A DNA stretch of 13,491 nt from an uncultured archaeon. Its GTDB lineage: Archaea > Thermoproteota > Bathyarchaeia > Bathyarchaeales > Bathycorpusculaceae. Below are positions 1 to 13,491 of this stretch, one piece after another (position 1 is the stretch's first letter; the number at the start of each line of letters is the position of its first letter). Both the position numbers and the translations under genes were made by a program. The notes below the pieces were generated by a model. The model was not told the origin of the DNA, searched no databases, and saw only the letters and a program-made list of their open reading frames with translations. The stretch is from NCBI GenBank assembly GCA_963782915.1, contig CAWALK010000010.1, positions 1 to 13,491 on the forward strand, written 5' to 3'.

Positions 1-1
1 C

Positions 2-190
2 CAAGCAGTCGCTGAAGGCGGAGATGTCGACAGCGCAATCGCCCTACTCAACGGCTTAGATGCCTCCAACGCGCCAGGTGCAACAATGCCCATAATATTC
101 TACCCGATCGTCGGAGTTACAGCTGCAATAGCCGTACTATTTGTGGTTCTCTTCATGAGAAGCCGCAGCAAAGTCAGCTACTTCACCTAG
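2..190 (+). CDS. 3' part of a membrane-anchored hypothetical protein (5'-truncated by the window edge; may continue by frameshift to 299 or 310)
   Basis: Frame 2 is open from base 2: QAVAEGGDVDSAIALLNGLDASNAPGATMPIIFYPIVGVTAAIAVLFVVLFMRSRSKVSYFT*, TAG at 188-190. It has one clear TM helix followed by RSRSK. A protein-like amphipathic continuation EDQIKDLEGLTMRAAKIDRAMSANLDSVKDRLK follows in another frame (195-293). Absent from the ORF track. Confidence 0.7.
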   Translation, partial: QAVAEGGDVDSAIALLNGLDASNAPGATMPIIFYPIVGVTAAIAVLFVVLFMRSRSKVSYFT

Positions 191-302
191 TCGTGAAGAC
201 CAAATCAAAGATTTAGAAGGATTAACAATGAGAGCAGCTAAAATCGACCGTGCAATGTCAGCAAACTTGGATTCAGTAAAAGACCGCCTAAAACATTAGT
301 TG

Positions 303-310
303 GGATGTGA
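303..310 (+). promoter_or_regulatory. Shine-Dalgarno-like site (GGATGTGA) for the tubulin-like gene
   Basis: 7/8 match to GGAGGTGA, 6 nt before an ACG codon (317) that is in frame with the tubulin-like ORF, just after in-frame stops TGA-TAA at 308-313. Confidence 0.45.
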
Positions 311-316
311 TAACCT

Positions 317-3018
317 ACGAGAATATACCAAAACAGCGTACAACTGATTGGGCTAGGTTCAGCGGGTACAAACATCGTTGAATCCTTCCTCGTCAACAAA
401 AAAACAAGGGAACTCATCGAAAACGACTTAACCCGTCTTTCCCTTTTAGCCATAGACATAGCTGACCCCGAAATCCGCAGCCTACAAGAAACCCATGATC
501 AAATCTCCAAAGCCCTCATTAAAGCTGGGATTCCGCGGGAAAGATGGCGATTAATCGCTGAATCCGTAAAATTCCCAACAGCCGAAGCCATGTTCGATTT
601 CATCAACCAAAAATACGGTGAATACGTAATCGGCGAAGGCTCAAAACTTGAAAATTATACTCCATGGCTCCAGTCCACTATGGCTGTTCCTCCGATGGCC
701 GGCGGCGCAGGACGCAGACGAGCTCTCGCAAAAGCAATCTACGCCCTGAACTATTACCAACTCGGCATCATCAGAAACTGCATTAACTCCTTCAAAGAAC
801 AGGCCCTATCCTCTATCGTTACCCCAACAGTCGTGTTGGTCTATGGTATGGGTGGTGGCACTGGAAGCGGCATATTCTTTGATTTCGCCCGTCACATGCG
901 AAAGGTGCTGGGTTCAGGAGTACCTATGATCGCGTTCGTTATTACGCCATGTGGTGGAGATGACCCTCCAGCGAAAGGCTGCTCAGCATTCACAGCCATG
1001 AACGAACTCTCACTGCTGCTTAACAAGGATTACAATGAGCACGTCACCAAAGTGTACGGCGAAATCTACCGCAACCCACTCAACGCACTCGTCTATTTAC
1101 CATTGCTTCCAGCGTTCTCCAAAGTAGGCAACATCGTGTCTGCCAGAAAAGAAATGGATGACATGGTCGTTGACCTGCTTTATGTTTTGATGGATTTTGA
1201 CTTAGCAGACCTCTTAGGCGGCATCGGCACAGAAGTCGGCTTAACCAACAATTCAGCGCACACATTGGGCATGATTAAAGTCATGTACCCAGTCGATGAT
1301 TACCTAGCAGCATACAAGCTAAGCTTCGAGGGCATGCAGCTACTCCAGGAATCACGCAAAGAAAAACTCAATATACTCGATGAAATCAAAAATATCATCA
1401 AAGTAGACAGCGACGTCACACGCGAATTATTCAAGAATTACCTAATCAAAACAGGAACATACAACGAAGACCAATTCGACGAAAAACTAAAAACCATCGT
1501 CAACAGCAACCCACGCCTCGAAGACGACGTCGAATTACATGTCAAAGGCGTCGAAATCCAAGTGAAAAATTGGCTAGACGACATAATGAAGTTCCTGCAA
1601 ACCATAAAATTAATGGGCAAAATCGGTCCAATCGAAGAAGCCATCATCAACTTAACACTTAAAAAAGATGACTCACGAAAACTAGACAACCTCGAAACCC
1701 TACTAACCACCCTCACCAAAACACACCTCGAATTCTACGAGAGCAAAGCAGTCATCCTCGAACGACTAAACCAATTAATCCCAAGCTCACAAATCTTCAC
1801 ATTACGCCAAAAGAAAATCCTCCAAGACATGGTAAACATCTCCGAACTCGCCGAACAAACCCTCAAACTACTCAAATTCTACGATGAAACACGATACATA
1901 ACAGACGCCCTATACGCTACTACGAAGTTCTCCCCGAATGCCAAGCTGAACTCCAAGAATTACATGACATCCAAGACGAACTCGGCACCGTTTACCTCTT
2001 AATCCAGTTAATGCTCCGAACACCACCAGACGAAGCAAAAATGATCGATGAACACTTAACATACATCAGCGAAATCCTCGCTAAGCGTATGCAGAAACGC
2101 GGCAGCTTCGACAACGAAGTCATGCGTGTCATGGAAGTCAAGAAACGCAAAGAATTCGACAAAACCAAGATGGAGCGTCAAGTACGCAAATTCTTAAGCT
2201 CCAAACGCTATGCACGCGAACAACTCCTCGGACTCGACCGCGACTTGCGAAGAATCGCTGAGGAAGAAGCCATCGCAATGGAAAACCTCGACAAAGTCGA
2301 TGCAACAATCAAACTCTACGAGAAACTTGCTAAACGATTCGAATTAACATCTGACTACCGCAAACGCCTCAACAAAATCGTCGATGCCCACCACGAATAC
2401 ACCGCCAAAATCGCAGAGATAGTTGCGCCTAAACGTTACTTCGAGAGAAACGCAGACTTAACCGAGAAGGAACAATTAAAAATCGTCTTCAAAATCTTAA
2501 CCGAACAAGAAGACACCCTAACACGCGAGGTTATCTTCAAAGATGTCTTCGACATGGACCACTTCAAAGACTACATAAAAAGCGTTGTCCGCAGCTTCAA
2601 AACCCCAAGCGTCATGGGTTACAAGCCAACGTATAAAACCGATTACATCTGGGTAACCGTCACAACACCTCCAAAAATGTGGACTGAGGACATGTCTCAG
2701 GAAGTCTACACTGCCCTCGCAGGTTACGTTACCAGCGAAGTCTCAAGAACCATCACAGTGCGTGTTGTCGAATCAAGAGATGCATGGACAACCCGAGTGC
2801 TCGTAGTCGGTGGACGCGGCAGACCCGAAGACATGGAAGCCTTCGACGAAATGCAGAACCTCTACAGCAAATCCAACGACTTCGAACGCTACCTCTCACG
2901 ATCATTCCTACTCGAACACGGCGTACACGCAACAAACATCATCAAACAAGTCAACCAAGAAAACGGCTACGCACCAACAGCCACCAACGGCAACGGCAAC
3001 AACAAGAAACAAGCATAG
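317..3018 (+). CDS. Large tubulin/FtsZ-superfamily GTPase with long helical/coiled-coil region (Tubulin_2/FtsZl-like), ~900 aa, frameshifted near 1912; joins track ORFs 590..2002 and 2011..3018
   Basis: The frame of ORF 590 is open from 314 and encodes QNSVQLIGLGSAGTNIVESF (T1 loop) and LLAIDIAD (T2) before the called ATG. It then has GGAGRRRALAK (T3), YGMGGGTGSG (T4 signature, 845-871) and DFDLADL (T7-like, 1193-1213). The frame of ORF 2011 is open from 1888 and reads IRYYEVLPECQAELQELHDIQDELGTVYLLIQL from 1912; restoring one base at CTA(A)TA joins the two. The true start codon is uncertain. Confidence 0.85.
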
Positions 3019-3021
3019 TTA

Positions 3022-3045
3022 GCAGAAGCTTTCTTTTTCTTCTGC
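3022..3045. terminator. Hairpin with T-rich loop between convergent genes; candidate terminator
   Basis: GCAGAAG (3022-3028) and CTTCTGC (3039-3045) form a perfect 7-bp inverted repeat around CTTTCTTTTT, inside the 42-bp gap between convergent stop codons. Confidence 0.55.
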
Positions 3046-3060
3046 CCCAAAATTTTTGTT

Positions 3061-4632
3061 TTATTCAACCTTTTGAGTTTTAGTTTTGCGCGTTCGCTTT
3101 GGCTTCTCGGTTTGGGCTGCTTGGGTTTCTTCTGGTTTAGGTTTTGCTTTTTTGGTTCTTGGAGTTCTTTTTGGTTTTGTAGGTTTCGGTGATTCGACTA
3201 TTTCTGGAGCTTCGATGGCTGCAGGTTGCGCTTGGATGTTTGTTGTTTCGATTGGGCTTTCTGTACTTACTGTTATTGCCGATTCAATAACTGGTGTTGG
3301 TTCTGGTACTGGGATAGGTGCTACCTCGACTGGCTGCGGCATCTCCATTGTTACCATTTGCGGAGGTTCTATCGGGGTGGGCTGAGCTGGTTCTGGTGTC
3401 TGTGGCTGCTGTGGAATAGGCAGTTCTTCGGGTTTTGCCTGCTCTGGAATAAGTAGCTCCTCTGGTTTTGTCGGCTCTGGGGTTGCTGGTGCCTCAATAA
3501 CGTCTGGTTCCTCCTCAACTTTAAAGGGCAATTGCCAATCCTCAGTCATAAAACCCCTCTCAACCGCTGCACTTTTAAGCGTCGCAACTTTCGTCTCCAA
3601 CTCCTCAAACATTTTGGAGATATCAAATCCGCCGATAAATAGCACTGCGTCGATGCGGTCACTCATGTCTTCTGTGTAGATAGGTTCGGATATGTGGATG
3701 GATTGGGGGCTGGTTTTTTCTTTGAACCAATCTGTTATTGCTAACTCAATTTTTGCCCTGGGAATCTTATCTTTCAAGTTGGCGGGCATGCGCAGGAGTA
3801 CGTAGAGTAGTTTTGAGCTGGATAAGTCAAAGGTTGAAAGTGGTTTTAGCAGGGCAGTGTCGAGCATATTCTCAATGGAGCCATATACACGATAACTGGC
3901 TGCCGTAAATGCTACGGCGCTGAAGAGTTTAACGTTAAAGGTGCGGGATAACTCGCTGATTTCCTGCACAAGCGACTCCTTAGCTAAGAACATGCTGAGC
4001 ATGTAATTGACTATGCTGTTGCCCTTGATTTGAACGCCACTCTTGTCTACGCCTTCAAAAGTTTCAAGTTGGTCTCTGCCTAAAAGCACAACTGTGGAGC
4101 CTTCAGTTGCCAAGCATAATTGCAGTGTGGCGTAGGCGTTGAAGTGGGCGTCTGCTGGTTGAATTTGTGATGGCAAAACAGCTATGGAGAGTGAATCGAT
4201 GCTTTGCCTGTTAAATTTGCTTATTAGGCTTGGTAGGGCGGCGCTGCCAACTCCATCCCAGGCGGAAGCGAAAACTATGGCTCCCCTTAGCCTCTCTGCT
4301 GAGCGCTTCTTTAAACTATCAATAACCGACTTGTCCCGAATGATTGTTGGCAATACATTGTACCAAAAGTGAGTGTCAATGTCTGCATCTTCAAAACCCA
4401 ACACCAAATGCGGCTCATAACCTTTCGGTATCCATTTGTAGATGTCATCGCTTGATTTTTCAATAAAAATCGGCAACGTACCATCTCTACTAACGGTTGG
4501 CTCTCTTAGCAGCGCCTTTATTGGGTATTCACCAATACAGACGATAGCTTGTTTAGGAACCAGAGGTTTTAGCCCTTCGATGTGTTTTTCGATGCTAACT
4601 AGGATGTTAAAAGCGTTTTTGCTATCCTTCAT
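3061..4632 (-). CDS. Divergent tubulin/FtsZ/CetZ-fold protein with degenerate GTP-binding motifs and Pro/Glu-rich plus Lys/Arg-rich C-terminal tail (523 aa)
   Basis: Motif order follows FtsZ/tubulin: AIVCIGEYPIKAL (T1 position), IVFASAWDGVGSAALPSL (T4 position, cf. AGLGGGTGSGAAPVI), SIAVLPS (T5), AHFNAYATL (cf. tubulin EPYNA), TVVLLGRDQL (cf. IVIDNDKL), ENMLDTALLKPLSTFDLSSSKLLYVLL (cf. ALxxPLLDVDISGAKGALV), and DRIDAVLFIGGF (final strand). The last ~150 aa are low complexity. Alignment by eye. Confidence 0.75.
   Translation of the reverse strand: MKDSKNAFNILVSIEKHIEGLKPLVPKQAIVCIGEYPIKALLREPTVSRDGTLPIFIEKSSDDIYKWIPKGYEPHLVLGFEDADIDTHFWYNVLPTIIRDKSVIDSLKKRSAERLRGAIVFASAWDGVGSAALPSLISKFNRQSIDSLSIAVLPSQIQPADAHFNAYATLQLCLATEGSTVVLLGRDQLETFEGVDKSGVQIKGNSIVNYMLSMFLAKESLVQEISELSRTFNVKLFSAVAFTAASYRVYGSIENMLDTALLKPLSTFDLSSSKLLYVLLRMPANLKDKIPRAKIELAITDWFKEKTSPQSIHISEPIYTEDMSDRIDAVLFIGGFDISKMFEELETKVATLKSAAVERGFMTEDWQLPFKVEEEPDVIEAPATPEPTKPEELLIPEQAKPEELPIPQQPQTPEPAQPTPIEPPQMVTMEMPQPVEVAPIPVPEPTPVIESAITVSTESPIETTNIQAQPAAIEAPEIVESPKPTKPKRTPRTKKAKPKPEETQAAQTEKPKRTRKTKTQKVE
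3413..3470 (-). repeat. Imperfect 33-bp intragenic tandem duplication (KPEELLIPEQA / KPEELPIPQQP)
   Basis: GGAATAGGCAGTTCTTCGGGTTTTG (3413-3437) and GGAATAAGTAGCTCCTCTGGTTTTG (3446-3470), offset 33 bp (11 codons). Confidence 0.65.
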
Positions 4633-4647
4633 CCGAGGTACCTACAT

Positions 4648-4682
4648 AAGCTTTAAGAGGCGTTCACATGAAATAAGGTTTT
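4648..4682. promoter_or_regulatory. Overlapping divergent BRE/TATA-like promoters
   Basis: Plus-strand AAGCTTTAAG (4648-4657) is ~40 nt before TTG 4694. Minus-strand AAAACCTTATTT (4682-4671) is ~40 nt before ATG 4632. Confidence 0.5.
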
Positions 4683-4693
4683 AGGTTGATTGC

Positions 4694-7105
4694 TTGAAGA
4701 AGCCCTCCTTGAAACTTTCTGGATTAAGCAGTTGGAATAAAGACCGAAAACAGAAAAGTAAAGAGAAGGAAGAACGGGAACGCCAAACCGAAACACAGAC
4801 ACTTAGAATGTTCACTTTCGTTGTTACACTTATCGCTATGGCGTTAGGTATGTCTTATCTGCCGCTTTTCCCGCAACCACTGCCTATACTACTGGCTGTT
4901 TTGGTTGCTTTTGCCACATATCAGAAGCCACGATTTGGCATGCCTGTGGGTGGAGCAATCCTTGGTTTAGGTTTAATGTTCCATTTGGCTCAGTTATACT
5001 TCATCTCGTTCCTCGGCGACACACCCGTGCGTGTGGTATTCATCGTTGTTTGGATGACGCTGTTTGTAGTTATGCCCTTAATGTTTAACCGCTACAAAAG
5101 CGCACTCGCGGTTGATTTTGGTATTTTGGCTTTTGTGATACTTTTCTTTGCCCCAGCCTATTTTATGGCTATTCCGCTGATTTTGGCTTCAGCGGTTTTC
5201 TTCAAAAAATACGTCGGCTTAACCGTCGTTTACTATGTGCTGCTTTCAGTGCCGCTTCAGCTTATGCAGTATTACCAATACACGGTTATGGCGATTGAAC
5301 GTTCCGATTGGTGGGTTGAAGTCGGTTCTGCTCCGCCAGTGTTTGTATCGCTCAGTAACATTGCTGGCGACTTAACATCCTCAATGAACCAGTTCCGACT
5401 CTATGACACTTCCAAAGTAATCTATGACATTGCTGGTCAAACCACTTGGACTCCAGATTGGGCTGGACGCACAATCAAAGATGCCCTAACCCAATACGTT
5501 GACTCGATTCCAGGTATCCTCATGTTCGTAGTAATTGTTGCTGGGCTTGCATTGGCACTTATCTTCTTTGGAAGAATGCTAATCAAAGAAGGTTTGATTG
5601 GTAACGGCGACAGATTATTCCCATGCTTCACAGCAACCATTGCCGCAGCATTATTCTTCATACTGCTGGATGCATTGCAGACCCCATTGGCGTTCACTGC
5701 GGAAGTGGGACCAGTAGCGATGGTGCTGGGCATATTAGGAACAGCGCTTTTGACACTGCCCGTATTGTTCATGGATTACACTCCCAAGAATCGTGCGACA
5801 AACCAGCAAATCACCGAAAAAGCACAAACACTCCTAAACAAAGTATTGGGCTTTGAAGACCAACTGGAAAATGTGAAAGCGAACATACCAGTGATCGTAA
5901 GCTCGCCTGAAGGCAAAACGCTTGTCCTAAAAGACTCCATCCAAGACATCCTCAAAAGAGCATCACTCAAAGAGTTCCAACAGCAAGAATTAGACGACAA
6001 ATACAACGAACTCGACAAACTCGGCAAAGACAATGAAGCCCTAGAAGCCGAACTTAACACAATTCTTGGGGAATACCAGATTTTCTCAAGCTGCGAATTC
6101 GCTAATTGGATTGGAAAACTCAAAGCAGCAGGCTTAGACGTCAAAACAACCGTGAAAGTTGAGTACCAAAAAGAGATGCCGCTTGAACAACGCATCGAAG
6201 CCATCAAACAAGTCATCGTTGCAGGACGTGAACTCGTCAAAGAAGTCTCATCAATTGCTGAACCCATCTATGGCATCATTCGACCACTGTATGATCCAGC
6301 ACTGCCAGCAAAGAGTTACGCCGTCGAGTTTGCGGCAGATAAGATCGCTAAGAAGGAAGCGCCATGGATCGCCGTTGAAGCACTCTTCAATGCCCTAAAC
6401 AACTGGAAACGCCAATACGGCTTAGACATACAAGCAACCATGAAATACCTGCAGAATTCGCTAAAACCCATTGCACGCTTAAGTAATCAAAGCGAGGTTT
6501 TGCCATCCGTTTTCGGCGATAACACCTCTAAAGTGCTTGGTTACGCGAAGAATGCTGAAGGCATGCGCCTAATCGCTGAGAAAAGAGCAGAAAAAGACGA
6601 AGACAAAATTGACCTCCAAGACGTCGTCGCATTGAAAGAAGACGTTGAAGGCTTCATAGCAATGTCAAACGATATCCTATCAATGCTCTACACGGGCATG
6701 GTCAGCGACGAAGAAACCATCGACCGATTACTACCCACAAAAGATTACCTCTGGGAAAAGAACGGTTCACTACGCGAACGCCTCGAGCAAGCAACAGGGA
6801 TGCTCTCAAACCCATCGCAGTACAAAATCAACGAAATCATGGCGAATCTGCCCAAATACCTCGGTTACATCGACGAATCAGTGCAGACATTGGCGCTTTA
6901 TGCAGAACGCAAAGAATTCCTACTCAATTACCCATTAGCGGAAGCAGCCATCAACGAGCAACTTAAAGTCAAGGAGAAGTTGTTGCCTTCTGATTTGCCA
7001 TTCCAGCCACGATTCGCAGCTGAATACCTAAGGCTATACTATGCCACACGCTATGGCGAATACATGTATGACAAGGAAACCTTAGTGCTGACAAAAAGAC
7101 CATAG
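4694..7105 (+). CDS. Hypothetical polytopic membrane protein: about 10 TM helices plus ~440-aa soluble helical/coiled-coil C-terminal region (803 aa)
   Basis: Long uninterrupted ORF with a charged N-terminus. Seven hydrophobic segments, an ~80-aa loop and three more segments are followed by heptad-like E/K/Q/L-rich helices (ELDDKYNELDKLGKDNEALEAELNTIL). No catalytic motif recognised. The TTG start is uncertain (alternative ATG 4808). Confidence 0.85.
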   Translation: MKKPSLKLSGLSSWNKDRKQKSKEKEERERQTETQTLRMFTFVVTLIAMALGMSYLPLFPQPLPILLAVLVAFATYQKPRFGMPVGGAILGLGLMFHLAQLYFISFLGDTPVRVVFIVVWMTLFVVMPLMFNRYKSALAVDFGILAFVILFFAPAYFMAIPLILASAVFFKKYVGLTVVYYVLLSVPLQLMQYYQYTVMAIERSDWWVEVGSAPPVFVSLSNIAGDLTSSMNQFRLYDTSKVIYDIAGQTTWTPDWAGRTIKDALTQYVDSIPGILMFVVIVAGLALALIFFGRMLIKEGLIGNGDRLFPCFTATIAAALFFILLDALQTPLAFTAEVGPVAMVLGILGTALLTLPVLFMDYTPKNRATNQQITEKAQTLLNKVLGFEDQLENVKANIPVIVSSPEGKTLVLKDSIQDILKRASLKEFQQQELDDKYNELDKLGKDNEALEAELNTILGEYQIFSSCEFANWIGKLKAAGLDVKTTVKVEYQKEMPLEQRIEAIKQVIVAGRELVKEVSSIAEPIYGIIRPLYDPALPAKSYAVEFAADKIAKKEAPWIAVEALFNALNNWKRQYGLDIQATMKYLQNSLKPIARLSNQSEVLPSVFGDNTSKVLGYAKNAEGMRLIAEKRAEKDEDKIDLQDVVALKEDVEGFIAMSNDILSMLYTGMVSDEETIDRLLPTKDYLWEKNGSLRERLEQATGMLSNPSQYKINEIMANLPKYLGYIDESVQTLALYAERKEFLLNYPLAEAAINEQLKVKEKLLPSDLPFQPRFAAEYLRLYYATRYGEYMYDKETLVLTKRP

Positions 7106-7275
7106 TTGGGGCTCATTTGTGATTTTTTCTCTATCCCCCTTATTTATAGGCTCAATGAGTGTGGTGCTTTTTGTTTAGTTTGTCTACGTTTGTTGACGCT
7201 GTTTTGTAATATTGGGTGGTTTGCATGGGGGTTGTTCTTTTTTCTGTGCAGTTGCCGCCGTTTAACTCAGGGCAT

Positions 7276-7992
7276 TCAAGCCACTGCTTTTTGTGATTCT
7301 ACCCCAACCAGAACAGGGAATAAGTCTCTATCCAAAACTACGATTTGGCGAGCATCCACGAAAAAGGCAGCTAACGGCGCATACGTTTCAGAGTACATCA
7401 ATCTCATCTCTACAACGTAGCAATCCGTGAAGTTGAAGTCATACTCCCATTCTGTCATTTGGTAGCCTGATTGGTTTTTGTAATAGAATTGCATATTGCC
7501 GCTACTTAGAAGAACCGAGCCATTGGGGGTTGATTTGACGATTGTGGTATTATGCCAAGTCACGCCTTGGGGTGCGGGACTATTGTAAATTCGAAACTGT
7601 GGGTACTCTGTTACGTTTGCTTCATAGGTTAGCTCTATCTGTTTAGGGTCTCCCTTTCCCTGAAGATTGTTATACCTTGTTTCGTAGTAGCCCAAAACTT
7701 CTGAGTCGATAAAGTTCGCGTAAGTATATACTAAGTATGTACCTGGATGAAGGTAAGCTTCGGGGTCACTTGAACCATCAAACCGCTCTAATGTAGAAAT
7801 AGCGGTATAGTTGATAGATTCGGCTGCTGTAAGTGCGCTTTCTTCTTTCGGGTTGATGAAATTTCGGTTAATGTTTTTCTCATATTTTTCGGACGCTTGA
7901 GGCTGTTTCAAATTCAACATAGCTATCGATGTGACGACTAAAACTAAAACTATTATGCCTACCGCAAGCATCAGGATTAATTTTTTACGCAA
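7276..7992 (-). CDS. Hypothetical secreted or N-terminally anchored protein (238 aa)
   Basis: MRKK plus a hydrophobic helix (LILMLAVGIIVLVLVVTSIAML), then a Y/T/N-rich beta-type domain with several N-x-S/T sequons (NYT, NVT, NTT, NGS, NQS, NFT). TTG start with GAGGGT upstream. Confidence 0.8.
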   Translation of the reverse strand: MRKKLILMLAVGIIVLVLVVTSIAMLNLKQPQASEKYEKNINRNFINPKEESALTAAESINYTAISTLERFDGSSDPEAYLHPGTYLVYTYANFIDSEVLGYYETRYNNLQGKGDPKQIELTYEANVTEYPQFRIYNSPAPQGVTWHNTTIVKSTPNGSVLLSSGNMQFYYKNQSGYQMTEWEYDFNFTDCYVVEMRLMYSETYAPLAAFFVDARQIVVLDRDLFPVLVGVESQKAVA

Positions 7993-8029
7993 CTCGCCTG
8001 ACCCTCAGTTACAGGTTATTAGCATTTGA

Positions 8030-8039
8030 ATTTAAAGCT
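8030..8039 (-). promoter_or_regulatory. TATA-like box for the 7992 gene
   Basis: Minus-strand AGCTTTAAAT about 40 nt upstream of the TTG at 7992; same motif and spacing as other promoters in the window. Confidence 0.45.
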
Positions 8040-8175
8040 ACACTTTAGAACGGACCGAGCTGTTATGTTTTTCTTGCTTTTCTAAAACTTTAGACTGGTT
8101 CGTTTCTTTATTTCCTCATGTTGTTCAATTAGGTAACATACTTCCTCGCACCGTGGACTGAAGCGTATTTTCTTT

Positions 8176-8186
8176 GAAGCTTAATA
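8176..8186 (+). promoter_or_regulatory. BRE/TATA-like box for the metallophosphoesterase operon
   Basis: GAAGCTTAATA about 40 nt upstream of ATG 8227. Confidence 0.45.
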
Positions 8187-8226
8187 CTTCCAGTACTCTT
8201 TTGTTTATTTACTGGTTTTAGACAGA

Positions 8227-9081
8227 ATGACAGAATCCCAAGATGTAACTAGGAATGATTTCTCTTTTCTTATTCGGCGAAAACTTCAAGGTAAGGTATC
8301 GAGGTTATCGTCAAAATTTGGTTGGCGAAAGTTTGACCCAAAAGACTTCAAAACTGAACACCAGGCAATTGTTGTTCCTTCCTTAGCCCCTGATTTTCAC
8401 GACTACAAAATCGTACATATCAGCGATATCCATTATGGACAATGGATTTCTGTTGATCGGCTCAGAGGGGTTGTTGATCTCATCAACCAAATTGACCCTG
8501 ACATTGTTGCAGTAACCGGCGATTTTGTTTCATATTTGCTGAATGATAAAATGGAGGACGAAATAGTAGAGCAGCTTAGTAAATTAAAGCCAAAAGACAC
8601 TGCCGTTGCAGTTTTAGGCAACCATGATCATTGGGCAGGTGCTGAAAGGGTTCGCGATATTTTGAGAAAGAGCAATATCTTGGACATTAGCAATAGTGTA
8701 TTTGAGGCATCGAAGTCAAACTCCAAATTAATTATTGCTGGAGTTGACAGCGTAATGCTCAAGAAAGATCGGTTGGATCTTGTTTTAAAAAAAATGCCTG
8801 CCGATACTCCCGCAATTCTGCTGGTTCATGAGCCAGATTTTGCCACTAAGAGTGCAGCCACCAAACGGTTCAGTCTGCAACTGTCAGGGCATTCGCACGG
8901 AGGCCAATTTGTCATACCAAAATTAGGAACACCCATCAGAGGAAACCAATTCATGAAATACCCACTAGGTATGTACAAGGTTGAAGGAATGACACTCTAT
9001 ACTAACCGCGGTTTAGGAACAAACAGCTATTGGCTGCGCATAAATTGTCCCCCCGAAATAACGGTGATCACTTTATTGTGA
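8227..9081 (+). CDS. Calcineurin-like metallophosphoesterase, YkuE/YaeI-like (284 aa)
   Basis: All five motifs present in order: HISDIH, TGDFV, LGNHDH, LLVHEP, LSGHSHGGQ. C-terminal YTNRGLG...LRINCPPEITVI is typical of the YkuE group. Confidence 0.93.
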   Translation: MTESQDVTRNDFSFLIRRKLQGKVSRLSSKFGWRKFDPKDFKTEHQAIVVPSLAPDFHDYKIVHISDIHYGQWISVDRLRGVVDLINQIDPDIVAVTGDFVSYLLNDKMEDEIVEQLSKLKPKDTAVAVLGNHDHWAGAERVRDILRKSNILDISNSVFEASKSNSKLIIAGVDSVMLKKDRLDLVLKKMPADTPAILLVHEPDFATKSAATKRFSLQLSGHSHGGQFVIPKLGTPIRGNQFMKYPLGMYKVEGMTLYTNRGLGTNSYWLRINCPPEITVITLL

Positions 9082-9090
9082 GGTATATTC

Positions 9091-11043
9091 TTGGTTAAAC
9101 ATGTAAAGCGAACAATCGCACAATTTCTTCTCTTTGCATTAGCAATTTATTTGATATCGTTTGTTACACCAGGCCTCTATATTAGCAACTTTTTCTCAGG
9201 ATTGCTTTTCACCATGTTGTCTGCGTTCTTGATTTTTCTTCTTTGGCCTCTACTTTTGAGGTATCTGGAGCGATTTCTGGTTTTAACTTTTGGATTGGGC
9301 TCTTTTGTTTTAAGTACACTTATTTTGTGGTTGGGCAGTCTTTTGATTCCGGGTGTAACGATTAGTGGTTGGGGCTGGATATTTGCCCCTATAACCGTCG
9401 CCGTTGCTAGTGCGATTGTTACTGTGGTTCTAAATATTGACGACGATGACGTTTACGCTCGTTCAGTCTACTCCCATCTTAAACGTCGAACAGACAAGGG
9501 TAAACTCGAAAATAAAAATGGGAAGCCAGGGTTCGTTTTCTTGGAAATTGACGGTTTATCCGAAGCAGTTCTTAGGCTGGCAATAGATAAAGGCAAAATG
9601 CCCTTCCTCGCCGATTTAGTCAACAAAGGTAGTCATACGATTAGAGGGTGGGAAACCGATCTTTCCTCTCAAACAGGTGCAAGCCAAGCAGGCATACTTC
9701 ACGGTTGTAACAAGGATATTCCTGCTTTTCGCTGGGTAGATAAATCCACTAACAAAATAGTTTCATCAAACGGTATTGGCGATGCACCCATAATTCAAGC
9801 CCGAATTTCTAACGGTAACGGGTTGCTCTCAGCTAATGGCGGAGCAGTTACAAATCTCTTCACAGGCGACTCCAAAGACAATATTTTTGTGTACAGCGTT
9901 GTAAAAGATATCAAGCAATTATACAGTGAATCATGGACAGCATTCTATACTAGACCCTACAATTTTGCAAGGGTTTTCTTGCTTTCATTATTAGACATGA
10001 TTCTTGAAGTCAGGTCTCGTTATAGACAGTGGCGGCGGGATATTCAACCCAGACTTCACCGCCGTGGACTAAAATACTTCATTGGGCGAGCAGGAGCAAA
10101 CGTCATTCTAAGAGAAATAAGCACCTACATCTTAGTGGGCGACATAATCGCAGGCGACAAAGACGTAGTTTACTCTACATATTTCGGTTATGACGAAATC
10201 GCCCATCACTGCGGAATAACTGACGCAGAAAGTTTCTACGCTTTGCAAAAGCTTGACCACAGAATAAGCAGAATCTTTGCCGCACAAAAATATAGCAAAA
10301 GACCCTATAACATCTGCATTCTTTCCGATCATGGGCAAACAAATGGCGCCACATTCAAGCAACGTTTCGGTTTAAGCTTAGATGAACTCGTCAAAAAACT
10401 CTTGCCTGAGAAAGAAACAATCTACCACGAACTAGATTCAAATCAAGATCATTTCTCCCAAATGATAACCGCTCCCAGCGATACAGTTAACCGCAAACTA
10501 AAACCGCACTCTAAAGAGAAAAAACAAAAAAACGCACAAGCCATCGTTTTAGCATCAGGCAATCTTGGCTTGATTTACTTCACCCGATGGCCCCAGCGAA
10601 TGACCTTAGAGGAAATAAATGCAGTTTACCCCGAAATGGTTGAAGGCCTAAAAAATCATGAAGGGGTAGGGTTCATTATGTTAAGATCAAAAGCAGATGG
10701 CCCAATAGTACTGGGGAGAAAAGGCACGTATTACTTGAATAGTAATAAAATTGAGGGTGAAAACCCATTGGAGAAATTCGGAGAACACGCTGCCGCGCAT
10801 CTTTTGAGAACTGATAGTTTCCAGTTTTTGCCTGATATTTTAGTCATGAGTTTATATGACTCTGAAAAAGATGAGGTTGCTGCTTTTGAGGAACTCATAG
10901 GTAGCCATGGTGGGTTGGGAGGCGGTCAGTCTAAACCATTCATTATGTATCCATCTGAGTGGCGTTTGGCTGAGGATGAAATTGTTGGGGCTGAGAGTGT
11001 CTATAAAGTATTCAAGCAATGCATGGAGAAATCGACAGGGTAA
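9091..11043 (+). CDS. N-terminal 4-TM phage-holin-family (YvlD-like) domain fused to an alkaline phosphatase/nucleotide pyrophosphatase-superfamily domain (650 aa)
   Basis: The first ~115 aa are hydrophobic with holin_4_2-like TPGLYI and LTFGLGSFV motifs. AP-superfamily metal/nucleophile motifs follow: LEIDGLS, SSQTGASQAGILHG, YDEIAHH, LSDHG, GSHGG. TTG start 9 nt after the upstream stop, with GAGGT overlapping that stop. Confidence 0.88.
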   Translation: MVKHVKRTIAQFLLFALAIYLISFVTPGLYISNFFSGLLFTMLSAFLIFLLWPLLLRYLERFLVLTFGLGSFVLSTLILWLGSLLIPGVTISGWGWIFAPITVAVASAIVTVVLNIDDDDVYARSVYSHLKRRTDKGKLENKNGKPGFVFLEIDGLSEAVLRLAIDKGKMPFLADLVNKGSHTIRGWETDLSSQTGASQAGILHGCNKDIPAFRWVDKSTNKIVSSNGIGDAPIIQARISNGNGLLSANGGAVTNLFTGDSKDNIFVYSVVKDIKQLYSESWTAFYTRPYNFARVFLLSLLDMILEVRSRYRQWRRDIQPRLHRRGLKYFIGRAGANVILREISTYILVGDIIAGDKDVVYSTYFGYDEIAHHCGITDAESFYALQKLDHRISRIFAAQKYSKRPYNICILSDHGQTNGATFKQRFGLSLDELVKKLLPEKETIYHELDSNQDHFSQMITAPSDTVNRKLKPHSKEKKQKNAQAIVLASGNLGLIYFTRWPQRMTLEEINAVYPEMVEGLKNHEGVGFIMLRSKADGPIVLGRKGTYYLNSNKIEGENPLEKFGEHAAAHLLRTDSFQFLPDILVMSLYDSEKDEVAAFEELIGSHGGLGGGQSKPFIMYPSEWRLAEDEIVGAESVYKVFKQCMEKSTG

Positions 11044-11046
11044 GCG

Positions 11047-11054
11047 TTTTTTTT
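11047..11054 (+). terminator. Oligo-T archaeal-type terminator
   Basis: T8 run 3 nt after TAA at 11041-11043. Confidence 0.5.
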
Positions 11055-11110
11055 CAAAGAAACCTCGCCATTACAACATGGCACTTTTTGGGTTAAACCT
11101 TGTTTACATC

Positions 11111-11329
11111 CTATTCGATAATTCGTTTCCTAATCTCTTCCTGCTGCTCTGGCGAAAACACTTCTTCTTCGCATCTTGGGCACCGAAGCGCTTTAACATC
11201 ATGCAGCACAACGCCGTCGAATTCACAGTCAAAAGTCACTTCTAAATATTCGACGCAGCAGGTTGGACACAGCAACGCGCCCGCTTTAGTGCCCTCCGAC
11301 TTACTGGTTGAATTTTTTGTCAAACTCAT
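11111..11329 (-). CDS. YgiT/MqsA-type zinc-finger protein (72 aa)
   Basis: CPTC...DGVVLHDVKALRCPRCEEEVFSPEQQEEI matches the YgiT-type pattern CxxC...V..V.A..C..C.E..F plus a terminal helix; no HTH. Confidence 0.8.
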   Translation of the reverse strand: MSLTKNSTSKSEGTKAGALLCPTCCVEYLEVTFDCEFDGVVLHDVKALRCPRCEEEVFSPEQQEEIRKRIIE

Positions 11330-11532
11330 CCGTCCAAGCTTTCGCTTTAGCTATGTCCATCTTGCCAAAAACTGGGAAGCCGATAATTTTAAGGTATCCT
11401 CGATTAACCTCGGACCAAAGAAACCAATATCCCCCAATGCACAGGTGGCCATCGGTTGCAGCAGCGAAAGTCCGCTATTGAACCGTGATTACATACAATA
11501 ATTTTTACCCTCGATTACCCTTAGCGGGGTTA

Positions 11533-12573
11533 ATGAACCCAACCACACGTAACCAGCATATTCCCCAGATATCTGTCGTTATGGCAGTTTACAATAAAGC
11601 GCCTTATTTACGTGAAAGCGTAGAGTCCGTTCTAAATCAGGACTTTGGGGAGTTTGAATTGATCTGTGTAGATGTCGCTTCAACCGATAACAGTTTAGAA
11701 ATACTCGAAGAATACGCAGCCCTAGACCCTCGAATAACTATTATCCGTACTTCTTACTCTAAAATTCCGGCGGTAACCAAAAACATCGGCATAGACGCAA
11801 CAAAAGGAGAATACGTATTCAACCTCGACGCAGACGACTACCTGCGAGCTGACACATTAAAAGAGATGTATGCAAAAGCTAAAGAGACAAATGCCGATGC
11901 AGTTATTCCCGATTTGCAAACGGTCTCCCTGAATGGAAGGTATATTCAGCCGTTTATCTCTGGCGTCAAAGGCAACAGACGCGTTTTGTTGACTAATAGG
12001 CAGGCTGTTACGGAAAGCCTTGATTGGACCATTCACGGGTTTGCTTTGTGGAAGGGAGATTTGATCCGCAGAATAAGGCTTGAAGAATTCGGAGCCTACA
12101 GTGACGAGTACTCTGCAAGGGTGTTATTTTTTAACTGTAAAATGATCGCTTTTTGTGGTGGCCTGTATTTTCACAGAATTAACGATCAATCTTTAACTGG
12201 AAAAATAAGTTTACCAATGTATGACCGCCCAGACGCAATTTACAGGGTTGCTTCATTCATTGAAAAGCAACTCTTTAATGAGAAAAACGTTAACAGCCTA
12301 CATTATTCTGTTTTCAAAGATTGCTGTTTTTTGCTCTGTAACACAAAATATTTAGCTGCGTCTGAGATGGCGGAAGCTCAAAGAAGAATTAAAGCAGTTT
12401 ATGACCAAATTGATATGGGGCGGGTTAGGAAAAGCGTTTTTACGTTGACGCCTGGCAGAGCTGCAATATGGCGTCCTAACGGCAGGGTTGGGAAATATAT
12501 TTTTGCGTTTCTGACATTTTTTGGTTGGGGTTTGTTAAATAAGCTACCCTTAAAGCTGCTCTTCAAGGGCTAA
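11533..12573 (+). CDS. Glycosyltransferase family 2 (GT-A fold), ~346 aa
   Basis: ISVVMAVYNKAPYL..SVESVLNQ, ELICVDVASTDNS, KNIGI, and NLDADD (DxD motif). ATG 11533 is preferred over the track's GTG 11485 because the domain begins ~10 aa later and a T/A box lies at ~11498-11507. Confidence 0.92.
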   Translation: MNPTTRNQHIPQISVVMAVYNKAPYLRESVESVLNQDFGEFELICVDVASTDNSLEILEEYAALDPRITIIRTSYSKIPAVTKNIGIDATKGEYVFNLDADDYLRADTLKEMYAKAKETNADAVIPDLQTVSLNGRYIQPFISGVKGNRRVLLTNRQAVTESLDWTIHGFALWKGDLIRRIRLEEFGAYSDEYSARVLFFNCKMIAFCGGLYFHRINDQSLTGKISLPMYDRPDAIYRVASFIEKQLFNEKNVNSLHYSVFKDCCFLLCNTKYLAASEMAEAQRRIKAVYDQIDMGRVRKSVFTLTPGRAAIWRPNGRVGKYIFAFLTFFGWGLLNKLPLKLLFKG

Positions 12574-12600
12574 GCTTAACTGTAATCGGAAAAAGGAACT

Positions 12601-13074
12601 TTAGGCACTGAACTTTTTGCCCAGTTCATCCGCCCAAGCTTCAACCTTATTCAAATCAAGGTTATCGATTACTTTTTTTCCCAGAATCTTCATGCGTCCG
12701 CCAAAAGCTTCAGTTGACACAGCATTAACATTGGGGTACTTCGCTAGTGTGTTTTCGACGAATTTTGCTTTAGCGTCAGCATAACTTTTCGGGTCTCCGC
12801 CTTGTCCTGAAGAAACAAAAAACGCCACTTTTTTACCCTCAAAATTGTTTTCAAGGCATTTTAGGGCTTTGCCATAGATTCTACCTGCCCTCACGCCGCC
12901 GCCGATAACAACGTTGCTGTATTGGGTGCAGTCAGAAATGTTCTGAACTCCCAAATCAACCAAGTCTACTTCTAATTGGTATTTAGAACGCAAAACATCC
13001 GCTATTTTCCGAGCGGACTCTTCGGTTGCGCCGCTTTTGCTTTCGTAGGCGACAAGTGTTTTGTTTTGGCTCAT
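12601..13074 (-). CDS. Flavodoxin-domain protein (Flavodoxin_5/HemG-like, 157 aa)
   Basis: FMN phosphate loop LVAYESKSGATEESARKIA, then VVIGGGVRAG, KVAFFVSS, AFGG, and C-terminal KVEAWADEL. Confidence 0.9.
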   Translation of the reverse strand: MSQNKTLVAYESKSGATEESARKIADVLRSKYQLEVDLVDLGVQNISDCTQYSNVVIGGGVRAGRIYGKALKCLENNFEGKKVAFFVSSGQGGDPKSYADAKAKFVENTLAKYPNVNAVSTEAFGGRMKILGKKVIDNLDLNKVEAWADELGKKFSA

Positions 13075-13443
13075 CTATGCGCTCCCAGACGTGGTTTCTG
13101 GTGTTAGGCGTTTGCCGCAGTTGTGGCAGAAGATTGCGCCTTCAACGTTTTTGGCTCCGCAGTTAGGGCAAACAACGGTTCCGTTTTGGGTTGCTTGGCC
13201 AGGTTGTGTTGATGTTTTTTGTTGCATGTTATCGCTGACTTTCTTAAATGCGGCTTGGGTTTCTTTGGCGGCCATGTTGAATGCTTTTTCAAGTTCCATT
13301 CCAACCATGTAGAAGGCGTCTCTGAGTTCATCGGAGGGATAGGAGACTTTCGCTGTTTTTCCTTGAGGGGTTTTGGTGCCGCATTTTGGGCAGAAGTTTG
13401 CGTCATCGGCGATTTGTGCGCCGCAGTTAGAGCAATAAACCAT
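13075..13443 (-). CDS. Double zinc-ribbon protein (122 aa)
   Basis: Two ribbons, YCSNCG...FCPKCG and VCPNCG...FCHNCG, flank an amphipathic helical linker. Its TAG directly abuts the flavodoxin ATG (TAGATG). Confidence 0.9.
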   Translation of the reverse strand: MVYCSNCGAQIADDANFCPKCGTKTPQGKTAKVSYPSDELRDAFYMVGMELEKAFNMAAKETQAAFKKVSDNMQQKTSTQPGQATQNGTVVCPNCGAKNVEGAIFCHNCGKRLTPETTSGSA

Positions 13444-13480
13444 AATTTATAACACCACTCTAGATGCATGTGTTATCAGA

Positions 13481-13491
13481 ATTTAAGCTTT
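13481..13491 (-). promoter_or_regulatory. BRE/TATA-like box for the zinc-ribbon/flavodoxin operon
   Basis: Minus-strand AAAGCTTAAAT about 40 nt upstream of ATG 13443; GGTG SD-like element in between. Confidence 0.55.

Follow-up and report, generated by a model that had tools for sequence, protein, structure and literature searches.

Bathyarchaeia carry a conserved block of four genes in which two very dissimilar members of the tubulin superfamily stand next to two membrane proteins. We describe it from a 13,491-nt stretch of DNA from an uncultured Bathycorpusculaceae archaeon (assembly GCA_963782915.1, contig CAWALK010000010.1, positions 1-13,491, forward strand), which we refer to as the window. 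In order, the block encodes an upstream membrane protein (up), a Tubulin_2 GTPase (tub), a 523-amino-acid (aa) protein with a cryptic tubulin fold (p523) and an 803-aa polytopic membrane protein (p803). The genes stay together in most relatives while their surroundings change, and we consider it about an even call that they encode a lineage-specific, membrane-anchored tubulin-superfamily assembly or scaffold.

Conservation of the four-gene block

Relatives of the locus were collected in one scan of genome contigs, with the window's 562-aa tub frame, which covers the N-terminal part of the GTPase, as the query. The scan gave 193 pattern matches, from which 117 relatives were confirmed, and the best 80 were analysed (L001-L080). 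Identity to the window's tub was 68-94% in the query region across these 80 loci and 64-98% at full length. By title, 76 of the loci derive from Bathyarchaeota, Bathyarchaeia or Ca. Bathycorpusculum, two are generic archaeal and two are bacterial. The two bacterial titles belong to metagenome-assembled genomes (MAGs) assigned to Limnocylindrales (L038) and Sulfotelmatobacter (L052). Both contain the archaeal four-gene block at 74-78% identity, L038 together with archaeal-type upstream genes, and their labels probably result from mis-binning. At the sensitivity of this search, the four-gene module was seen only in Bathyarchaeia.

We clustered all open reading frames (ORFs) of at least 90 aa in the 80 loci and found up (+), tub (+), p523 (-) and p803 (+) to be contiguous in 69 of them. 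Nine of the other 11 loci are cut by contig ends. In L055, p523 was dropped by the overlap filter alone and was recovered by tblastn, and L011, from a termite-associated Bathycorpusculum MAG, has an insertion of three genes between tub and the p523 homologue (13147-16430). These inserted genes have Pfam matches to a Peptidase_C58-like family, MACPF/perforin and DUF4332/HHH. The flanks of the block vary among the 69 loci, with 14 upstream and 24 downstream neighbour clusters. Those flanking genes that were scanned have housekeeping functions, including an ECF transporter component, a GHMP kinase, a cytidylyltransferase, an RHH-AIRS protein, a GH5 cellulase, a phosphoribosyltransferase and an antiporter-like subunit. 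Across the 80 loci, conservation ends exactly at the edges of the block. Median pairwise ratios of non-synonymous to synonymous substitution rates (dN/dS) are 0.06 for tub, 0.16 for p523 (0.14 for its core), 0.18 for p803 and 0.24 for up; judged from these sequence comparisons, all four genes are under purifying selection.

The genes and spacers of the block are listed below, with ORFs called using translation table 11.

2..310 (+): 3' end of up, a bitopic membrane protein, with its natural stop TGA at 308-310; frame broken in the window
2..190 (+): 5'-open frame of the ORF listing, ending in a transmembrane (TM) helix
302..319 (+): putative coupling junction from the aligned loci, conserved GGGATGTGA with the up stop, followed by a conserved ACG at 317-319
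317..3018 (+): tub, Tubulin_2/FtsZ-like GTPase gene, in frame 2 at 317-1912 and in frame 1 at 1912-3018
590..2002 (470 aa) and 2011..3018 (335 aa) (+): tub pieces of the ORF listing
3019..3060: convergent spacer, with an inverted repeat GCAGAAG (3022-3028) / CTTCTGC (3039-3045) and T-runs, read by eye
3061..4632 (-): p523 gene (523 aa) of the ORF listing
4633..4693: divergent spacer, with motifs ATAAGCTTTAAGA (4646-4658) and AAATAAGGTTTTAGGT (4671-4686) kept across the family
4694..7105 (+): p803 gene (803 aa) of the ORF listing; by hydrophobicity a polytopic membrane protein, with hydrophobic segments at 4811-5770 and a soluble C-terminal domain at 5774-7102

A preliminary description of the window, made from its letters and ORFs, had proposed this arrangement, and on the whole it stood: the genes adjoin in relatives despite changing flanks, and the spacers measure exactly the 42 bp (tail-to-tail, from the end of tub at 3018 to p523) and 61 bp (head-to-head, p523 to p803) that it gave. 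What did not stand was a single open tub frame of about 900 aa. The inverted repeat of the convergent spacer was absent from the output of a promoter/terminator consensus scan of the window, which returned 7 and 8 sites where 9.0 and 8.9 were expected and uses bacterial, not archaeal, consensus sequences.

A Tubulin_2 GTPase with a long helical region

The window's 470-aa tub piece matches Pfam Tubulin_2 (PF13809) with an E-value of 8.2e-9 (35.6 bits, cut-off 27), and the intact tub of L050 does so with 6.5e-17 (62.3 bits, same cut-off), over profile positions 2-207 of 356. Pfam Tubulin (PF00091) remained below its cut-off on the 470-aa piece, for which no relevant match was found in a single-sequence PDB search or in NCBIfam. 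The motifs below come from an alignment of tub homologues (A2, 75 rows), and the region boundaries come from a structure model.

350..373 (+): T1-like glycine loop GLGSAGTN, nearly invariant in A2
851..871 (+): tubulin signature GGGTGSG (T4), residues 180-186 of the frame open from 314, nearly invariant in the 75 rows
1190..1210 (+): MDFDLAD between two predicted helices, nearly invariant in A2, a candidate T7-like acidic loop
~317-1290 (+): GTPase domain
~1292-2420 (+): long helical region
~2440-2960 (+): C-terminal alpha/beta domain

We took the definition of the GGGTGSG signature from PMC2875224. The T1-like loop, this signature and the Tubulin_2 match are in line with the motif-complete GTPase of the preliminary description. 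In the window, however, no single open frame spans the gene: from stop to stop, frame 2 runs from 314 to 2002 and frame 1 from 1888 to 3018. Among the relatives, tub is a single uninterrupted frame of 884-903 aa in 73 of the 80 loci, broken at other places in five (L001, L009, L023, L043 and L059) and cut by contig ends in two.

The span from T1 to T4 is longer in tub than in CetZ1 (4b46), with query residues 9-172 against chain residues 4-101, or about 65 extra residues. An AlphaFold2 (AF2) model of the intact tub of L002 reached an overall predicted local distance difference test (pLDDT) score of 70.6. It predicts long helices over residues 326-703, some 380 residues with pLDDT values mostly of 84-93, and a mixed alpha/beta domain over residues 710-882 with moderate to low pLDDT. 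When the full-length model was searched with Foldseek, the top ranks were taken by long-helix proteins such as dyneins. A home-made heptad score was not discriminating, as its first threshold flagged nothing and a recalibrated one also flagged the globular GTPase domain.

A tblastn search of PLSDB with tub found 14 plasmids, 12 from Rhodococcus and one each from Brucella and Agrobacterium. The closest annotated relatives that we found are two paralogues on plasmid pRHL2 of R. jostii RHA1 (WP_011600030.1 and WP_011600032.1), which match the tub N-terminal domain at 28-30% identity (E-values of 6e-38 and 3e-30; hhalign probability 99.8%). Tub residues ~763-880 also have a counterpart in the 568-aa paralogue, at its residues 400-516 (BLASTP E-value of 8e-5; hhalign probability 79%, E-value of 1.6e-5). 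As the C-terminal domain is shared with this compact homologue, we take it to be an ancestral part of the branch, and for the same reason the helical region of ~380-450 residues looks like an insertion between two domains. The two paralogues, an uncharacterised pair at 8860-12440 of the pRHL2 locus (L081), are 33% identical to each other (E-value of 4e-84) and lie downstream of an aliphatic amidase gene. A likeness of tub's C-terminal domain to that of p523 was also considered and found to be unsupported by hhalign comparison of the sub-alignments.

A cryptic tubulin fold in p523

We found 67 p523 homologues with an intact frame, ranging from 374 to 670 aa, whose common part is a core of about 380 aa. 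No match to p523 was found in Pfam (PF00091 and CetZ_C included), in NCBIfam or in a single-sequence PDB search. The proposal that the gene encodes a degenerate tubulin fold is borne out by three partly independent lines of evidence, namely structure prediction, a sequence profile and language-model neighbours. The AF2 model of the core, built from an alignment of 68 rows (A1), has a mean pLDDT of 88.0 and a predicted template modelling score (pTM) of 0.86. In the PDB, Foldseek found at least 500 matches to it at an E-value of ≤0.001, aligned over 341-376 columns and so over essentially the whole chain. Among the matches listed, the leaders were CetZ (3zid, E-value of 9.7e-15), TubZ, CetZ1 (4b46), FtsZ and tubulins (E-values of ~1e-14). 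The template modelling scores against CetZ1 4b46 are 0.68 by query (TMq) and 0.77 by target (TMt), and those against CetZ structures overall are 0.64-0.68 and 0.68-0.77, respectively. In BFVD, the core matched phage tubulins and PhuZ with scores of 0.5-0.6. The A1 profile matches Asgard AtubB2 (9f6v, E-value of 1.1e-4) and CetZ (3zid, 1e-3), in alignments of the S4/T4-T6 signature region. The nearest named language-model neighbours, after the family's own two Bathyarchaeota clusters, are clusters carrying Tubulin, TubZ-like_C or CetZ_C at 0.92-0.94. Together, these predictions and profiles support a complete tubulin/FtsZ fold for the p523 core, closest to CetZ. Its parts are as follows.

3493..4632 (-): conserved 380-aa core with the two-domain tubulin/FtsZ fold (AF2, Foldseek, profile)
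4539-4522, 4260-4240 and 4086-4063 (-): core motifs CIGEYP, WDGVGSA and LLGRDQLE, respectively (A1)
3061..3492 (-): variable Pro/Glu/Lys-rich tail with a basic patch, KPKRTRKTKTQKVE, and the stop codon (homologue comparison)

The motifs of the core depart from those of GTP-binding tubulins. At the T1 position, p523 reads G34-E-Y-P, with only the first G invariant in the family. The signature is W-D-G-V-G-S-A, with a family consensus of WDGxGSA (SxWDGxGSAxLP), and 'RD' takes the place of the 'DN' of CetZ and AtubB2. The protein is thus without the glycine-rich T1 loop and without the GGGTG(S/T)G signature for GTP binding, and we infer that it has probably lost nucleotide binding. A pair of nearly invariant glutamates, E224 and E227, is located at the predicted H7-H8 junction. 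The idea of an active tubulin paired with an inactive one, put forward in the preliminary description, fits these motifs, with GGGTGSG in tub as opposed to WDGVGSA and GEYP in p523. Outside the core, roughly every second homologue is without any extension, those of 374-390 aa lacking the tail. The clade of the window's p523 has the C-terminal tail, whose composition is similar to that of an N-terminal extension of ~275 aa in the clade of L050.

Membrane proteins and probable translational coupling

The 58 intact up homologues (299-369 aa; alignment A3) share a layout of an N-terminal hydrophobic segment, either a signal or a TM segment, a variable outer domain of ~230 aa, one TM helix and a cytoplasmic tail of ~50 aa. 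The tail ends in ...KDRLKRLVGM and contains most of the invariant columns of A3. In the window, the TM helix is encoded by the 5'-open frame 2..190, in agreement with the TM-anchored protein that had been placed before the GTPase gene. No significant Pfam family, vWA included, was found in any of the 58 members; PspB appeared below threshold in five of them, with a best E-value of 0.012.

Where the stop codon of up could be located, in 71 of 73 loci, it lies 3-7 nt before a conserved ACG. This ACG is the first tub codon in 71 of the 73 intact loci, with ATG in the other two. By comparison, ACG accounts for 175 of 1850 codons at 26 other conserved Thr columns, where the most frequent single codon makes up at most 59%. 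In 54 of the 71 loci, the stretch from the preceding stop to the ACG is free of in-frame ATG, GTG and TTG codons, and in 32 of these 54 the next such codon comes at least 21 codons downstream, beyond the T1 loop. In the window itself, ATG, GTG and TTG are all absent from the stretch that runs from the stop at 311-313 to the T1 motif. The tub gene appears to start at the conserved ACG, or the ACG may mark a termination-reinitiation site. Because the up stop lies only 3-7 nt before the start of tub, translation of the two genes is very probably coupled. Stop-codon read-through or an up-tub fusion was ruled out, since the relative frames of the two genes vary among loci and many loci have two consecutive stops. 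An ACG start just after the stop of up would allow archaeal initiation of a non-canonical kind, or re-initiation, to be tested.

The 62 intact p803 homologues are 796-984 aa long. In the window's p803, about nine hydrophobic segments lie within residues 40-359 and are followed by ~440 soluble residues. The preliminary description had predicted ~10 TM segments and a coiled coil; the hydrophobic segments agree with the former, and the latter is not established by our crude heptad score. No Pfam or NCBIfam family matches p803, its language-model Atlas neighbours are Bathyarchaeota clusters only, and two weak PHROG matches (E-values of 0.0024 and 0.0052) have no assigned function.

Both starts were called for p523 and p803 in 60 loci, five of which were left out because the called ORFs overlap. 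The spacer is 48-66 nt long in 43 of the 55 measurable loci. Its motifs ATAAGCTTTAAGA and AAATAAGGTTTTAGGT are retained even in the most distant loci, where the proteins are only 36-45% identical. We presume that the spacer is a shared divergent promoter with TATA-type and TFB recognition element (BRE)-type elements for both directions.

A proposed membrane-anchored assembly and its alternatives

If the block encodes a membrane-anchored assembly, the cytoplasmic tail of up and/or p803 would tether tub to the membrane. p523 would then act as a non-catalytic structural or regulatory subunit, possibly offering a T7 face to tub, and not as a self-sufficient GTP-driven filament. Such an assembly might organise or remodel the membrane or envelope, a role other than cell division or DNA segregation. 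A more specific version would be a two-component machine, in which a Tubulin_2 GTPase, held at the membrane by the co-translated up protein and with a giant helical arm inserted between its two tubulin-type domains, works with a CetZ-like pseudo-GTPase that provides the activating T7 face and with the polytopic protein. We regard this version as a long shot. If true, it would be a cytoskeleton with a transmembrane link, through which GTP-driven assembly is coupled to the cell envelope, and an archaeal parallel to the asymmetry of alpha/beta-tubulin, derived from unrelated branches of the superfamily. A complex prediction of tub residues 1-380 (A2) with GTP and the p523 core (A1) scored 0.00 against a mark of 0.32, which is neutral.

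Several observations weigh against a membrane-anchored assembly. Contacts among the four proteins are hypothetical, and the first two genes, up and tub, are frame-broken in the window. The GTPase domain of tub is poorly modelled, with block means of pLDDT of 33-83 over residues 1-320. Foldseek matches of tub to CetZ1, TubZ and FtsZ are weak as a consequence, with E-values of 6e-3 to 3e-2 and TMt of ~0.3 at a probability of 1.0. The likeness of MDFDLAD in tub to the FtsZ T7 loop is tentative, a resemblance and not a structure-based alignment. The same goes for the E224/E227 pair of p523, at the predicted junction where the T7 acidic residues of FtsZ and tubulin lie. Loss of nucleotide binding in p523 is read from motifs only, and in a solved Asgard tubulin the second residue of the signature is likewise D (GDGTGAG). 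The p523 and tub families are not significantly similar by hhalign (probability 0.3%, with all sub-alignments below 1%), so the two are not close paralogues. Finally, the phylogenetic depth is shallow, as all 80 loci are 68-94% identical in the query part of tub, and 34-49 loci share a housekeeping block upstream as well; inherited gene order could for these reasons account for some of the synteny.

Inherited order is central to one alternative, in which tub and up form one unit and p523, perhaps with p803, another, for example a cell-shape filament with unusual nucleotide binding. Besides the shallow sampling (tub identity to the window query of at least 68% in all loci), the syntenic housekeeping block and the lack of detectable profile similarity between the tub and p523 families, the gene orientations, which make three transcription units, are in line with it, as is the tolerance of L011 for three genes between tub and p523. 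We nonetheless find it rather unlikely, as the block remains contiguous in 69 loci while 14 and 24 different neighbours come and go around it, and conservation stops exactly at its edges. A DNA-segregation or mobile-element system of the TubZ/PhuZ type, with the basic tail of p523 binding DNA, would explain why the named language-model neighbours of p523 are mostly phage Tubulin/TubZ clusters, why its Foldseek matches include TubZ and PhuZ, and why the only relatives of tub in the plasmid database are on Rhodococcus, Brucella and Agrobacterium plasmids. Yet CetZ is the better structural match of p523 (TMt of 0.77 versus 0.5-0.6), and the tail is missing in about half of the homologues. The block sits in a chromosomal housekeeping context, complete-chromosome MAGs included, and Pfam revealed no DNA-binding adaptor or integrase in it. 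No match to p523 was found by tblastn in 50,697 phage records, PHROGs had none for up, tub and p523 (and the two weak ones for p803), and PADLOC had none for all four proteins. Such a system is highly improbable.

A different concern is that up and tub are true pseudogenes here, in which case the window would show the remains of a system that no longer works. Comparison with L001, L002 and L049 by blastn revealed uncompensated 1-nt deletions at ~184, ~194, ~296 and ~1912, the first three of which wreck the cytoplasmic tail of up and the last of which splits the tub gene. There is no such deletion in the other 11.5 kb of the window's coding sequence that was aligned to L001. The four are outside long homopolymers, and their clustering in the first 2 kb would be improbable if errors were uniform, an estimate being (1912/13491)^4 = ~4e-4. 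Then again, three of the four are less than 300 nt from the first base of the window. The up and tub proteins are, deletions aside, still 94-96% identical to those of L001, and the window's p523 and p803 have their full length, at 84-94% identity to the L001 proteins. Since frame breaks are frequent in these MAGs (tub in five of the 80 loci, p803 fragmented in about ten), as is typical of assembly error, assembly error is the more likely source of the four deletions, and we consider real decay unlikely.

With a second tubulin-fold protein alongside its two membrane proteins, the block provides a compact and strictly conserved set of partners, which opens the way to binding and GTPase-activation experiments. 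As the p523 family is invisible to Pfam and NCBIfam, censuses of the tubulin superfamily based on PF00091, as in PMC9871819, may undercount archaeal members.

Other genes in the window

Downstream of the block, a gene for a YaeI-like metallophosphoesterase (8227-9081) lies just upstream of a gene for a 650-aa fusion protein (9091-11043), with an N-terminal four-TM Phage_holin_4_2 domain (E-value of 2.1e-10) and a type I phosphodiesterase/nucleotide pyrophosphatase domain (3.1e-10). Further on, a flavodoxin-like gene (12601-13443, -) adjoins one for a 122-aa protein with two zinc ribbons (Zn_Ribbon_1 and DUF7577). This pair was found downstream of the block only in L001, L002, L006, L013 and L049.

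Comparison with known systems

Bathyarchaeia encode canonical FtsZ homologues as well as non-canonical FtsZ-like sequences of unknown role, according to PMC9723716. FtsZl1, equated with Pfam Tubulin_2 in PMC9871819, has been called the tubulin superfamily's most divergent branch, and no characterised member is mentioned in the text of PMC2875224 and PMC9871819 that we consulted. In PMC2875224 (Makarova and Koonin 2010), a vWA protein is a usual component of predicted FtsZl1 operons, in which kinases, OmpA proteins or diverged P-loop GTPases are also frequent, and their other genes are lineage-specific and often encode TM segments. As compared with FtsZl1 as portrayed in these texts, tub is similar in its Tubulin_2 match above the cut-off, its GGGTGSG signature, its extra sequence between T1 and T4, its long predicted helical region followed by a further C-terminal domain, and the membrane-protein neighbours in the block. 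It may differ in its C-terminal domain, tentatively predicted to be alpha/beta where that of FtsZl1 is mostly helical, and it does differ in that a second, cryptic tubulin-fold gene is fixed in the bathyarchaeial block. Moreover, neither the block nor its scanned flanks have, by Pfam, a gene for a vWA protein, a protein kinase, a P-loop GTPase or an OmpA-family protein. The preliminary description had allowed that the locus might simply match a described FtsZl operon, which on these partners is not the case. Our literature search took in text of the 2010 paper, though not its supplementary member and operon lists, and turned up no description of the block, nor of any Tubulin_2 gene that has a cryptic tubulin-fold gene as its partner.

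CetZ, an archaeal tubulin-like protein of cell shape (PDB 3zid, 4b46 and 4b45), is the best structural match of the p523 core, which is of similar size (~380 aa) and whose profile matches 3zid over S4-T6. Unlike CetZ, p523 lacks the Pfam Tubulin and CetZ_C domains, has GEYP at T1, WDGVGSA as its signature and 'RD' for 'DN', and bears a variable, disordered basic extension at either end. With the heterodimeric tubulins (alpha/beta-tubulin, BtubA/B and Asgard AtubA/B), the block has in common two tubulin-superfamily genes side by side with unequal nucleotide sites, and among PDB sequences it is the Asgard AtubB2 chain that the p523 profile matches best. However, tub and p523 are not detectable paralogues, are very unlike in size and architecture and lie on opposite strands, and a dimer is unsupported here. 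TubZ and PhuZ resemble p523 in fold and are among its language-model neighbours, but the block is chromosomal, has no adaptor gene and no phage sequence match, and the GTP motifs of p523 are degenerate.

The Rhodococcus pair likewise consists of two tubulin-like genes in one operon, and its 568-aa member has the C-terminal domain of tub. Its proteins are, in contrast, compact (514 and 568 aa), without the long helical insert and both with a GGTGSG-type signature, and the genes flank a 99-aa gene and have no annotated membrane partners. Considering these likenesses and differences, the locus is best filed as an FtsZl1-type membrane-associated tubulin system with new parts, a cryptic CetZ-like pseudo-GTPase and two membrane proteins.

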